43,084 nucleotides of DNA from a virus (IMGVR_UViG_2778261355_000014:1-43084), one strand, 5' to 3'. Positions 29,239 through 38,967 are shown, numbered from the stretch's first letter. Program-made: numbers and translations. Notes: generated from the sequence alone by a model not told the origin.

Positions 29239-29314
29239 TGGTGCTGGTTAACGGACTTGAACCGCTACCCATTCGCTTACAAGGCGACTGCTCTACCATT
29301 GGAGCTAAACCAGC
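29239..29314 (-). tRNA. Phage tRNA, predicted tRNA-Thr (anticodon TGT)
   Basis: Hand-folded cloverleaf: acceptor GCTGGTT/AACCAGC, D-arm GCTC-CAATGGTA-GAGC, anticodon loop CTTGTAA, T-arm AGCGG-TTCAAGT-CCGTT, encoded CCA; one G-A mismatch at the anticodon stem base. Confidence 0.6.
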
Positions 29315-29319
29315 ATATT

Positions 29320-29394
29320 TGGCGGGACAGCGTGGACTCGAACCACGATAAGAAGGTTAACAGCCTTCCGTAATGACCTTTATACGACTGACCC
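29320..29394 (-). tRNA. Phage tRNA-like gene, predicted anticodon GTT (Asn), degenerate D-arm
   Basis: Perfect T-arm CGTGG-TTCGAGT-CCACG and anticodon arm GAAGG-CTGTTAA-CCTTC, encoded CCA; T-T mismatch in acceptor stem and weak D-stem. Confidence 0.45.
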
Positions 29395-36599: not shown

Positions 36600-36668
36600 C
36601 TCCGAAATTAAAGAACACTTAAATTATCCACTAAAGGAATCTTAAGTCAAGTTTATTTAAGATGTCTT
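36600..36668. promoter_or_regulatory. OR/PR-PRM operator region with three P22-type operators
   Basis: AATTAAAGAACACTTAAATT, ACTAAAGGAATCTTAAGT and ATTTAAGATGTCTTAACT half-site pattern between cro and cI. Confidence 0.65.
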
Positions 36669-36672
36669 AACT

Positions 36673-37323
36673 ATGAAAACTCAATTGATGGGAGAGCGCA
36701 TTCGCGCTCGGAGAAAAGAACTCAAGATCAGGCAGGCCGCACTTGGAAAGATGGTCGGCGTGTCTAATGTTGCCATATCTCAGTGGGAACGCTCTGAGAC
36801 AGAGCCAAATGGAGAGAATCTTCTCGCCCTGGCTAATGCGTTGAAGTGTTCCCCTGACTATCTGATGAAAGGAGAGGAAAGTCTTTCAAACATTGCCTAT
36901 CACAGTAGGCATGATCCAAGAGGGTCATACCCTCTGATTAGCTGGGTGAGCGCAGGATGCTGGATGGAAGCTGTAGAACCATATCATAAGCGTGCAATAG
37001 ATAACTGGTACGATACAACCGTAGACTGTTCAGAAGATTCGTTTTGGTTGGACGTGAAGGGAGACTCAATGACGGCTCCGGCCGGTCTCAGTATCCCTGA
37101 AGGAATGATAATACTCGTCGATCCTGAAGTAGAGCCGCGTAACGGGAAACTGGTAGTTGCAAAGCTCGAAGGAGAAAACGAGGCAACTTTCAAGAAGTTA
37201 GTTATTGATGCAGGCAGGAAGTTTCTAAAACCACTTAACCCACAATATCCGATGATCGAGATCAACGGAAACTGCAAAATCATCGGCGTAGTTGTCGATG
37301 CAAAACTAGCAAACCTTCCATAA
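36673..37323 (+). CDS. cI: CI-type prophage repressor (HTH plus S24 LexA-like autopeptidase domain)
   Basis: N-terminal HTH QAALGKMVGVSNVAISQWERSE; C-terminal GDSM...KLEGE...K S24 motifs. Confidence 0.9.
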   Translation: MKTQLMGERIRARRKELKIRQAALGKMVGVSNVAISQWERSETEPNGENLLALANALKCSPDYLMKGEESLSNIAYHSRHDPRGSYPLISWVSAGCWMEAVEPYHKRAIDNWYDTTVDCSEDSFWLDVKGDSMTAPAGLSIPEGMIILVDPEVEPRNGKLVVAKLEGENEATFKKLVIDAGRKFLKPLNPQYPMIEINGNCKIIGVVVDAKLANLP

Positions 37324-37346
37324 AGGGGCATTCGCCCCTTTTTTTT
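37324..37346 (+). terminator. Rho-independent terminator after cI
   Basis: ggggc-attc-gcccc hairpin followed by tttttttt. Confidence 0.75.
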
Positions 37347-37349
37347 ATT

Positions 37350-37440
37350 TCCTTTAAAAATCAAAGCCAAACTTAAGTTACGAAAGAAAATTTAAGTTTT
37401 CTTCAAAAATACTCTTGACCATTAATTAAAGAGATCTTAA
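37350..37440. promoter_or_regulatory. OL/PL operator-promoter region
   Basis: Repeated TTAAGT/ACTTAA operator half-sites; TTGACC -35-like element at 37425-37430. Confidence 0.55.
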
Positions 37441-37488
37441 ATTTAAGCCATCAGCAGGACGCTGGAAGCCAAACGGAACAGATTGGCA

Positions 37489-37529
37489 GGCTCTTTAACA
37501 TTGATGGGATTGTCCCGCCGAAATGCGGG
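37489..37529 (+). promoter_or_regulatory. nutL (boxA GCTCTTTAACA plus boxB hairpin CCCGC-CGAAAT-GCGGG)
   Basis: boxA at 37490-37500, boxB at 37514-37529, upstream of N. Confidence 0.7.
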
Positions 37530-37637
37530 AACCAAAGAGTAGTTGGCTTTGGGGTGACGTGAAGTGCAGCTGCACGACGGCAACCGGAAGATAAGCACCC
37601 GGCGCGTCACCGCCAAAGTCAATCATCGGAGGTCAAC

Positions 37638-37937
37638 ATGACAGTAGTCATTACATATCTTGCTGACGATAACGCCAGAAATCGCCGCAGAGCACGCAGA
37701 CAGGCTCAACGTGAACAGGCAATGCAAGAGCAGCAACTGGCACGAAAAATTGCGCTAAAGCTCTCTGGTTGCGTCAGAGCAGATAAAGCAGCATCACTCG
37801 GAAGCCTTCTCAGCAAGAAGGCAGAAGAAGTCGAGCGTAAACAGAACCGAATTTATTACAGCAAGCCACGCAGTGAAATGGGTGTGACTTGTGTTGGTCG
37901 CCAGAAAATGAAATTAGGCAGCAAACCACTTATTTGA
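37638..37937 (+). CDS. N: Antitermination protein N
   Basis: Arginine-rich motif NARNRRRARRQAQREQ at N-terminus; C-terminus RIYYSKPRSEMGVTCVGRQKMKLGSKPLI resembles lambda N. Confidence 0.85.
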   Translation: MTVVITYLADDNARNRRRARRQAQREQAMQEQQLARKIALKLSGCVRADKAASLGSLLSKKAEEVERKQNRIYYSKPRSEMGVTCVGRQKMKLGSKPLI

Positions 37938-37948
37938 GAGGAATTAAT

Positions 37949-38572
37949 ATGTCATCAATCCGCTTAACTACGAGAATGAAAGAGGAAATCGCTCGTAACG
38001 CTTTAATTAAGTCTGGGGTTTTCACTGAACTTGAAGAAGTAACAAAGTTAAAGAACCAGCTTGCACTTGACGCCAGAGTTATTGCGTTTGGCGGTAAAAA
38101 GAAAACTGAGGAAGTGGATCAGTTATCATCCAAGTTGGTAGCTATAAGTGAAGAACTTGGAAAGATGGGATGTTCATTTTACTCATACGATGTTCGTTCT
38201 ACTTCAATTTATCTGACTGTATCTGGCAGAAGGGTTGGATGGCTTTCATATGGGAAAGACGGCAACGGCGAAGATATATTGCTCCCTACTCCGAACAAAG
38301 ATAAATGCATGTTTAGCGCAGAACACGAAATAACAAAAAGGTTTGATGAAATCTGCGTATTGCAACAAAAACTTGAAGCCAAGAAAAAGGATATCGAATC
38401 AAATGTATGGGCTGCTTTGAACTCAGTCACAACAGTTAAGCGACTTATTGAGGTTTGGCCTGAAAGCAAAGAATTGCTACCAAAAGAAGCAGATAAAGCA
38501 AGTACAGCACTTCCTGCTTTACGGGTAGAAGATTTGAATAAGATGATTGGACTTCCTTCCGAGGCCGCATAG
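37949..38572 (+). CDS. Hypothetical 207-aa soluble protein immediately downstream of N
   Basis: Start taken at MSSIRLTTRMKEEI with GAGAGGAA RBS; no TM segments; no homolog recalled. Confidence 0.5.
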   Translation: MSSIRLTTRMKEEIARNALIKSGVFTELEEVTKLKNQLALDARVIAFGGKKKTEEVDQLSSKLVAISEELGKMGCSFYSYDVRSTSIYLTVSGRRVGWLSYGKDGNGEDILLPTPNKDKCMFSAEHEITKRFDEICVLQQKLEAKKKDIESNVWAALNSVTTVKRLIEVWPESKELLPKEADKASTALPALRVEDLNKMIGLPSEAA

Positions 38573-38590
38573 TCGGCCTTTACTTTTGGC
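38562..38590 (+). terminator. Candidate terminator after the 207-aa ORF
   Basis: aggccg-catagt-cggcct hairpin followed by interrupted T tract. Confidence 0.4.
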
Positions 38591-38706
38591 ATAAACAACA
38601 GAATAAACACTGCACTGTGTATTCATTCCAACGAGTGAATACACGGAGCAATGTCGCTCGTAACTAAACAGGAGCCGACTTGTTCTGATTATTGGAAATC
38701 TTCTTT

Positions 38707-38731
38707 GCCCTCCGATGTGAGGGCCTTTTTA
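38707..38731 (+). terminator. Candidate rho-independent terminator / attenuator
   Basis: gccctc-cgatgt-gagggc hairpin followed by cttttta. Confidence 0.5.
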
Positions 38732-38796
38732 TATGCATACCAATAACGCTTCACTTGAGGCGTTTTCGTTATGCAATCAAACAGAAGGAGCATCCT

Positions 38797-38967
38797 ATGC
38801 AACAGTTCGCTATTGCAGGGGCGGCATCGGTTCGCCCTTTCAACCCGATTTTATCGGTACAGCATTCACGAAAAAATATTTTAACCGGAGCAGACTTTAA
38901 ACAACCAAGAATGAAAAGTTTGCTCGAAAAGCTTTGGGATATTTTGAAACAACAAGGCCGTCCATGA
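38797..38967 (+). CDS. CIII-like small protein (tentative)
   Basis: 56 aa from MQQFAIAGAAS; AAGGAG RBS; helical KSLLEKLWDILKQQGRP resembles the lambda CIII core as recalled. Confidence 0.45.
   Translation: MQQFAIAGAASVRPFNPILSVQHSRKNILTGADFKQPRMKSLLEKLWDILKQQGRP

Follow-up and report, generated by a model that had tools for sequence, protein, structure and literature searches.

This analysis concerns the gene at positions 37949 to 38572 of the viral sequence IMGVR_UViG_2778261355_000014, a stretch of 43,084 nucleotides (nt) that we call the window. The gene encodes a protein of 207 amino acids (aa) and 23.1 kDa, which is a member of the Nmad5 family (PF18757). Nmad5 stands for "nucleotide modification associated domain 5," a name derived from gene neighborhoods in hypermodifying phages, and we know of no member with a known biochemical function. 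The match to the Pfam profile (E-value of 1.9e-71, 240.8 bits with a cutoff of 27) runs from end to end, with residues 4 to 203 covering positions 1 to 206 of the 206 in the profile. Residues 3 to 207 likewise match positions 2 to 208 of the 208 in PHROG 1965 (8.8e-83), which is labelled as of unknown function. The identical protein in RefSeq (WP_032199560.1) is named "Nmad5 family putative nucleotide modification protein," as are many orthologues. Hence, the gene itself was already known and annotated under a family name. A preliminary description of this DNA had called the protein unassigned and stated that it resembled nothing that could be named; both statements have to be given up at the level of the family.

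What the same description said about the gene itself agrees with the sequence. The open reading frame (ORF) of 207 codons lies directly 3' of an N-like gene with a gap of 11 nt, has a good ribosome-binding site, and is followed by a hairpin that is kept in relatives. The product is hydrophilic (grand average of hydropathicity of -0.32, isoelectric point [pI] of 7.6) and lacks a membrane segment, the highest Kyte-Doolittle mean over 19 residues being 0.6. The Shine-Dalgarno sequence overlaps the region of the N stop codon, and translational coupling from N to the Nmad5 gene is possible. A longer ORF starting with TTG at 37889 was rejected because the homologues all begin at MSS/MT-(I/V)RLT. On the opposite strand, an ORF at 38209 to 38610 overlies the conserved Nmad5 coding region. 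The features of the locus are as follows.

36673 to 37323, upstream of PL: cI-like S24 repressor gene (LexA family protein in RefSeq)
37322 to 37350, plus strand: terminator-like hairpin and T-run after the cI-like gene (8-bp stem with 5 G-C pairs, then TTTTTATTT)
37369 to 37449, plus strand: region of the PL-type promoter (TTGACC at 37415 to 37420, a 17-nt spacer, TAAATT at 37438 to 37443)
37369 to 37379, 37388 to 37398, and 37439 to 37449, plus strand: three operator-like repeats AAAYTTAAGYY, perfect copies within 80 nt
37490 to 37530, plus strand: nutL-like site by sequence and fold (boxA-like GCTCTTTAAC at 37490 to 37499, boxB-like hairpin at 37513 to 37530)
37638 to 37937, plus strand: N-like antiterminator gene (99 aa, arginine-rich N-terminal motif NARNRRRARRQAQREQ)
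37938 to 37941, plus strand: Shine-Dalgarno sequence GAGG as read from the sequence, 7 nt before the ATG
37949 to 38572, plus strand: Nmad5-family protein gene (ATG at 37949, TAG ending at 38572)
38561 to 38589, plus strand: terminator-like hairpin and T-tract (tL1 equivalent), the first such site after PL
38611 to 38764, plus strand: hairpins in a 224-nt gene-free spacer (38573 to 38796) before cIII
38797 to 38967, plus strand: cIII-like gene (MQQFAIAGAASV...), the right boundary of the accessory slot

The Nmad5 gene appears to be expressed from PL together with N. The last operator-like repeat overlaps the -10 hexamer of PL, and a copy with one mismatch lies on the PR side (36638 to 36648); these repeats are probably functional operators. 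The site downstream of PL is presumably nutL-like, as we assume from its resemblance to the boxA consensus, and the N-like ORF has a weak match to N_peptide (E-value of 0.003, below the Pfam cutoff). A consensus scan found no promoter-like or terminator-like site between PL (37415 to 37443) and 38561, where the hairpin GAGGCCG-CATAGT-CGGCCTT (38561 to 38580) begins. It has a 7-bp G+C-rich stem (-11 kcal/mol), carries the stop codon of the Nmad5 gene in its loop, and is followed by TACTTTT; in relatives the hairpin is kept with the gene, and its T-run is usually better (TTTATTTTT). The first terminator of lambda, tL1, comes directly after N. Because no terminator precedes the hairpin at 38561 and because this hairpin is conserved with the gene, N and the Nmad5 protein would both be made from the N-independent, immediate-early transcript. 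The terminator at 37322 to 37350 should keep the repressor transcript of a lysogen from running into the downstream operon. With this strong terminator after cI and operator-like repeats over PL, neither N nor Nmad5 would be made in the lysogen, in which the Nmad5 gene is predicted to be silent.

The gene is also widespread as part of a cassette. IMG/VR holds 80 near-identical copies (95 to 99% identity) in lambdoid prophages, 77 of them full length. Identity to the window sets in approximately 100 nt before the ATG, with the last ~26 codons of N, extends through the hairpin to approximately 140 nt downstream, and then decays; the cassette consists of the 3' end of N, the Nmad5 gene, and the terminator. 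It occurs behind five unrelated antiterminators (lambda-type N, the window type, the MTVIVYGKSTF type, 933W-type N, and Nun-like) and is followed by four types of cIII or by other accessory ORFs. When the cassette follows, four unrelated N-terminal halves of N, including the lambda type, share the last ~26 residues (...YSKPRSEMGVTCVGRQKMKLGSKPLI; window positions 37860 to 37937; loci L009 to L088). The same C terminus on unrelated halves points to a recombination joint inside the N gene.

In the slot of the lambdoid prophages the order is N or Nun, optional Ral, Nmad5, an optional p96, p156, gp17, DUF2528, or cc322, and cIII. Ral (66 aa; PF11058, E-value of 2.2e-48) is a separate gene directly upstream of Nmad5 in 7 of the 80 copies, 36 nt away, and P22 gp17 (103 aa; PF17420, E-value of 7.3e-56) is a separate downstream gene in 5 of them. 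The preliminary description had argued that the place after N in the PL operon hosts anti-restriction and exclusion genes. This positional reasoning is sound, as Ral and gp17 flank Nmad5 in the slot of relatives, and Nmad5 is a distinct member of the N-cIII accessory region. Ral shares with the window protein the slot and the early expression from PL; however, the two have no sequence relationship, and Ral is Cys-rich. Since Ral and Nmad5 co-occur, they are not alternatives of one function. With gp17 and SieB only the slot is shared: there is no homology, and the window protein has neither membrane segments, unlike SieB, nor a promoter of its own. The window protein matched none of Ral (PF11058), SieB, and gp17 in a Pfam scan that listed matches up to an E-value of 1, with the HMMER filters dropping most matches above ~0.1; homology to Ral or SieB was what the preliminary description had named as speaking against it.

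Other ORFs of the slot were also noted. p156 (MTKSWSVPFPES...) has no Pfam match and fills the slot alone in some E. coli prophages (locus L089, 5752 to 6222), and p96 (MEFKGTEGKW...), DUF2528, and a 322-aa Glu/Lys/Ala-rich coiled-coil protein (MSEVTDLVVIEK...) are further occupants; slot ORFs lie downstream of Nmad5 in loci L009, L011, L016, and L025.

The Nmad5 gene is carried by 211 of 5,426 complete E. coli genomes (3.9%). Carriers include mEp235, HK542, Kapi1, PhiR12, and many phages encoding Shiga toxin 1 or 2 (Stx1/Stx2), and a scan of genome contigs with a close Nmad5 alignment returned four species only. In Stx2a-converting phages (LC616032 to LC616070), many tblastn matches span only residues 34 to 207 and the DNA match is split, which suggests that the gene downstream of N is truncated or interrupted in this lineage.

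A profile search over 1.84 billion representative sequences, clustered at 50% identity, identified 2,299 Nmad5 clusters at an E-value of ≤1e-3, 693 at ≤1e-10, and 147 at ≤1e-30. The best 150 of the 2,299 clusters are nearly all 185 to 230 aa long, with few shorter fragments. Among 100 further matches with listed Pfam domains, all carried PF18757 only, and a search for domain fusions among them found none. Members span ~30% to 99% identity in phages of alpha-, beta-, and gammaproteobacteria, and the family is common in virulent phages too (Dhillonvirus, Schitoviridae, and Yuavirus). The window protein shares with the family the full-length match to the hidden Markov model, a single domain of ~200 aa, and the motifs RL(T/N) at the N terminus, the GG turn, TxKKL..WPE..ELLP, and LPxxxVxDLNxxIGLP. 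Conserved positions in the N-terminal and middle parts are R5, I14, A18, R43, G48-G49, and G93, and conservation is strongest in the C-terminal 45 residues (T162-x-K-[KR]-L, W170-P-E172, E175-L, P178, L188-P, L196-N197, and G201-L-P203). The window protein keeps R5, G48-G49, G93, T162, L166, W170-P171-E172, P178, L196-N197, and G201-L-P203, in columns that are 85 to 100% conserved among 88 to 150 diverse members. The conserved columns are mainly G, P, L, and W, plus R5, R43, E172, and N197, and no constellation of His, Asp, Cys, Ser, or Lys recurs across the aligned members. By their nature, the conserved residues are mostly structural.

An AlphaFold2 model built with 88 sequences was of high predicted quality (predicted local distance difference test score of 92.2, up from 85.5 in the first model, and predicted template modeling score of 0.84). 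It has three long N-terminal helices (residues 8 to 22, 24 to 47, and 50 to 72), a small, variable beta insertion (approximately residues 76 to 125, with 86 to 100 and short strands up to 122), a long helix (127 to 158), two short helices (163 to 169 and 171 to 176), a linker of low confidence (185 to 189), and a last helix (194 to 200). The preliminary description had proposed structure prediction and remote homology as a check on its view; these led to a known family but to no fold relative beyond Nmad5. Foldseek found nothing in the PDB at an E-value of ≤1e-3, sequence and profile searches of the PDB gave nothing better than 0.7, and a search of BFVD returned other Nmad5 proteins only. According to the model, Nmad5 has no fold relative among solved structures and neither an enzyme fold nor a catalytic signature. 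The N terminus, the turn between helices 2 and 3, and the C-terminal module probably meet at one end of the bundle, where the conserved residues would cluster, and the variable beta insertion would lie at the opposite pole.

Several leads from sequence or name were rejected. Weak Pfam matches to YfjL_C (E-value of 0.034), DUF7201, and P4Ha_N did not recur across the 88 members. A reading of the C-terminal LxVxDLNxxIGLP as half of a SAP/HeH/Rho_N or HhH motif was dropped; in a scan of the 88 members, the 25 listed families with the best support included no SAP, Rho_N, or HeH. A DNA mimic of the Ocr/ArdA type was rejected in view of the pI of 7.6 and a charge that is balanced in every segment, and the window protein has neither a Pfam match nor a fold match of this type. 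The "NMAD" domain of a validated DefensePredictor system proved to be Nmad2 and hence does not concern Nmad5. A scan of the window protein against NCBIfam gave no match. Literature searches on the lambdoid carrier phages, the family identifiers, and the accession found nothing about this gene; the window Nmad5 sequence is not among the supplements of the accessory-gene screen of Silas et al., and an anti-defense machine-learning preprint is silent on the protein.

Does the family name tell us what the protein does? Methyltransferases, hydroxymethylases, kinases, pyrophosphorylases, and other base-modifying enzymes are all missing from the annotation of the entire prophage in RefSeq. Hence, membership in the family stands, but the function that the name implies is unsupported at the window locus, and in most of the sampled contexts modification enzymes are likewise not nearby. 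The situation is different in phage SN1 (Yuavirus/M6-like), in which the Nmad5 protein SN1_019 is encoded inside a thymidine hypermodification cluster (PMC9476957). SN1_019 is ~27% identical to the window protein over the full length, but its gene lies among those for aGPT-Pplase, a 5-hmdU-type kinase, radical SAM and pyridoxal phosphate enzymes, and a hydroxymethylase, none of which are present in the window prophage.

We surveyed the neighbors of Nmad5 in 78 diverse IMG/VR loci, which form 33 clades at 80% identity. The commonest were PolA (14 clades), S24 repressor (13), DUF2800 (12), Enc34-type single-stranded DNA-binding protein (SSB; 9), and SNF2 helicase (6); replication proteins O/P, RecT, YqaJ, and a ParB-like protein were also recurrent, and a small methyltransferase was present in 3 clades. 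Nmad5 is on the strand of the S24/helix-turn-helix repressor and 0.1 to 1.8 kb downstream of it both in a metagenomic phage and in prophages from Klebsiella, Photorhabdus, Aeromonas, Providencia, Serratia, and Pantoea; in these temperate phages it is thus the first gene of the early-left operon or close to the first. The modules downstream of it vary and include Kil with integration genes, DUF2800 nuclease-Enc34-type SSB-family A polymerase, Dam-SNF2 helicase-SSB, and AAA_24-DUF669-helicase; Dam lies two genes downstream of Nmad5 in the Aeromonas prophage. In other phages, Nmad5 precedes replication protein O (Vibrio phage Athena1), lies between ThyX and genes leading to SSB (Salmonella phage SP-058), follows the helicase-primase (phage eiAU), or is an opposite-strand insert in structural modules (Dhillonvirus and the myovirus Vibrio phage 138). 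Nmad5 is thus an early accessory gene adjacent to DNA metabolism, and its link with base modification is real but confined to a minority of contexts. As a side observation, ~1.1 kb without a called gene separates the S24 repressor from Nmad5 in the Providencia prophage (locus L178, 4881 to 6000), and gaps of 0.36 to 0.5 kb without a called N-like ORF are present at the same place in the Klebsiella and Photorhabdus prophages; these gaps could hold a small gene missed in gene calling or an RNA element.

Genetic data on a distant homologue come from a study of Dhillonvirus phages and the Tmn defense system (Yamashita et al., PMC11846954). Mutants that escaped Tmn carried the exchanges K216E (SM_A8) or K296E (SM_S22) in nmad5, and restoring the wild-type residue restored the sensitivity to Tmn (PMC11846954). 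According to the same report (PMC11846954), nmad5 is dispensable and can be deleted, but the deletion gives no escape; the gene could not be cloned, for which the authors blame its apparent toxicity, and they describe the escape mutation as a gain of function. In our alignment K216 and K296 are one and the same residue. The SM_S22 annotation carries 80 extra N-terminal residues that are absent from all homologues, and the deposited start of SM_S22 CDS6 (locus L091, 1506 to 2510) overlaps the neighboring scaffold gene; the true start is probably the Met aligned with residue 1 of SM_A8. The mutated residue aligns with R165 of the window protein, within the TxK[KR]L motif, at a position where 78 of 88 members have K, R, or Q. 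The Dhillonvirus proteins (254 aa in SM_A8; CDS6 in SM_S22) share ~33% identity with the window protein over the C-terminal 100 residues and have the TxKKL..WPE...LN..IGxP module in common with it. However, they are ~47 aa longer owing to a bigger beta insertion, their N-terminal half can barely be aligned, and their gene lies on the opposite strand within the head-gene module of a virulent phage. That a point mutation gives escape whereas deletion does not would be expected of a binder of changed specificity rather than of a simple trigger sensed by Tmn. This pattern would fit a binding protein in which a change of the surface creates or alters an interaction.

How could Nmad5 then act in the window prophage? 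We hypothesize, with a probability of roughly 40%, that it is an immediate-early, nonenzymatic protein that binds its partner stoichiometrically in counter-defense or host takeover. A role in defense or anti-defense would follow from its position, its predicted early expression, and the one published genetic result on a distant homologue. Nmad5 would be made together with N from the repressor-controlled PL, on the first, N-independent transcript, which would end at the stop-codon hairpin. As a soluble helical bundle, it would act stoichiometrically and would not modify nucleotides. The conserved pole (R5, R43, G48-G49, T162, K164/R165, W170-P-E172, N197, and G201-L-P203) would bind a target that many proteobacterial hosts share, be it one of their proteins or DNA, with the variable beta insertion at the opposite pole adjusting the specificity. 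The phage would thereby be aided in the earliest phase of infection or induction. The absence of an enzyme fold, the probable conserved pole, the flexible and conserved C-terminal segment, the early expression, and the accessory distribution all argue for such a binder, as do the counter-defense genes next to it, its independence from particular systems of replication, recombination, or antitermination, and the dispensable and apparently toxic nature of the Dhillonvirus homologue.

Several points weigh against this hypothesis. An inference from position is weak evidence. The promoter and terminator calls come from consensus scans, and the hairpin behind the gene is modest, with -11 kcal/mol and an interrupted T-run in the window. 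The conserved pole was deduced from the order of helices and from single-residue strands assigned by DSSP at residues 5 and 162, not from coordinates. The ratio of nonsynonymous to synonymous substitution rates (dN/dS) is ~0.47 across 60 distinct near-identical alleles, which fits a conserved gene but shows only moderate constraint among them. None of the defense-protein models in PADLOC-DB matched the window protein at an E-value of ≤1, which says little either way because these models cover defense systems and not anti-defense genes. Moreover, in some phages the gene does adjoin base-modification or nucleotide genes (aGPT-Pplase and hydroxymethylase in SN1, ThyX in SP-058, Dam in the Aeromonas prophage, and a methyltransferase in 3 clades), and in many others it is inside replication modules, which leaves room for a role in DNA metabolism.

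These last two points lead to explanations of their own. The protein could serve a pathway that modifies nucleotides or DNA bases as a scaffold, specificity factor, or regulator, as suggested by the family name in Pfam and RefSeq and by the phages just named, in particular SN1, where the gene lies between those for aGPT-Pplase1 and dUMP hydroxymethylase (PMC9476957). However, with no modifying enzyme annotated anywhere in the window prophage, recurrent neighbors across the 33 clades that are repressor, nucleases, SSB, polymerase, helicases, RecT, and O/P with the small methyltransferase as the sole exception, a lambdoid cassette that moves alone, and neither an enzyme fold nor a catalytic motif, we consider such a role distinctly improbable. 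An accessory role in phage replication or recombination, as a mediator for SSB, annealing proteins, or polymerase or as a protector of intermediates, would account for the order DUF2800 nuclease-Enc34-type SSB-Nmad5-family A polymerase in 9 to 14 of the 33 clades, for the positions near helicase-primase in eiAU, replication protein O in Athena1, and polymerase and SSB in SP-058, and for the operon shared with Erf, an SSB-like gene, and Abc2 in the window. We nevertheless regard it as unlikely: the would-be partners are mutually unrelated (O/DnaB, PolA, Prim-Pol, and VapE; Erf, RecT, and Sak4-like), the terminator of Nmad5, cIII, and kil lie between Nmad5 and Erf, the Dhillonvirus homologue is dispensable (PMC11846954), only 3.9% of complete E. 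coli genomes carry the gene, and in two phage groups it is an opposite-strand insert in structural modules.

The location in the operon brings to mind yet another function, the protection of the lysogen by exclusion or abortive infection in the manner of SieB, Nun, or Rex. The N-cIII interval holds sieB in lambda and P22, an HK022-type Nun adjoins Nmad5 in some relatives, and the apparent toxicity of the homologue could suit an abortive effector. However, the interval from PL to the ATG has no promoter-like site, operator-like repeats overlap PL, and transcription from cI stops at a strong terminator, so that expression in the lysogen is not expected. Together with the lack of a membrane segment, in which the protein differs from SieB, the lack of a PADLOC match, and the frequency of the family in virulent phages such as Dhillonvirus, Schitoviridae, and Yuavirus, this makes an exclusion function very unlikely. 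No more probable is that the gene has no selected function here and is a hitch-hiking remnant left between N and cIII by recombination. The moderate constraint among close alleles (dN/dS of 0.47), the patchy distribution, and the truncated copies (residues 34 to 207 only, in Stx2a phages) are what a remnant would leave; they contrast with 77 of 80 copies being full length, with motifs that are invariant across ~30% to 99% identity in phages of alpha-, beta-, and gammaproteobacteria, and with a ribosome-binding site and terminator that are conserved with the gene. Some of the probability remains unassigned to either the stoichiometric binder or these four alternatives.

Returning to the early binder, a bolder version of it can be put forward, tentatively and with the odds against it. 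Nmad5 proteins would be misnamed and would form a widespread class of immediate-early effectors with a new fold, whose conserved pole binds a host component shared by proteobacteria and thereby disarms immunity or seizes DNA metabolism. Reversing the charge at the position of R165 (K216/K296) would retarget this binding or extend it to the membrane NTPase Tmn, and the lambdoid N-Nmad5-terminator cassette would be a mobile counter-defense module expressed before N antitermination.

What our analysis adds to the existing annotation is that the family name is a poor guide at the window locus, that the gene belongs to a mobile, N-linked cassette of predicted immediate-early expression, and that the sole published functional mutation maps to the most conserved motif of the family. 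The functional label misfits most genomic contexts of the ~2,300 clusters, which occur in lambdoid, Stx-converting, P22-like, N4-like, Yua-like, and Dhillon-type phages. The laboratory phages HK542, mEp235, and Kapi1 carry copies that are ~96 to 98% identical, and the role of the protein is directly testable in them. A counter-defense role, if true, would bear on the engineering of phage host range, as the Tmn study suggests, and on the biology of Stx phages.

Downstream of the Nmad5 gene, the gene-free spacer contains a perfect 14-bp stem at 38615 to 38644 (-21.9 kcal/mol, z of -6.4) without a T-run and terminator-like sites at 38707 to 38724 (followed by CTTTTTAT) and 38745 to 38764. An Rfam scan of the spacer (38573 to 38796) found no family match; the spacer may act as a set of tL terminators, in processing, or as the source of a small RNA. 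The next gene is probably cIII, judging by its likeness to lambda cIII and the annotation of relatives. It is followed in RefSeq by genes for an ERF-family recombinase, an unnamed product, and an anti-RecBCD protein (Abc2-type), and so on to torI.

The right-hand 10 kb of the window match the E. coli ATCC 43886 chromosome with 100% identity, and the window is a P22-like prophage located between argW/intS and torI/dsdC. The integrase gene intS (region of 2833 to 4226), next to the tRNA-Arg gene argW, and the excisionase-like torI (approximately 42900 to 43084), by dsdC, lie at opposite ends, as in the KplE1/CPS-53 arrangement; the int end also carries an IS1 element and a gene for a 581-aa family 2 glycosyltransferase. 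A sar RNA (Rfam RF00262, 62 bits) at 9552 to 9617 lies beside Arc-family and P22 antirepressor-type genes in a P22-like immI region. Two tRNA genes of the prophage (Thr and Asn according to RefSeq) are located at 29242 to 29394, between the genes for the Q antiterminator and the holin.

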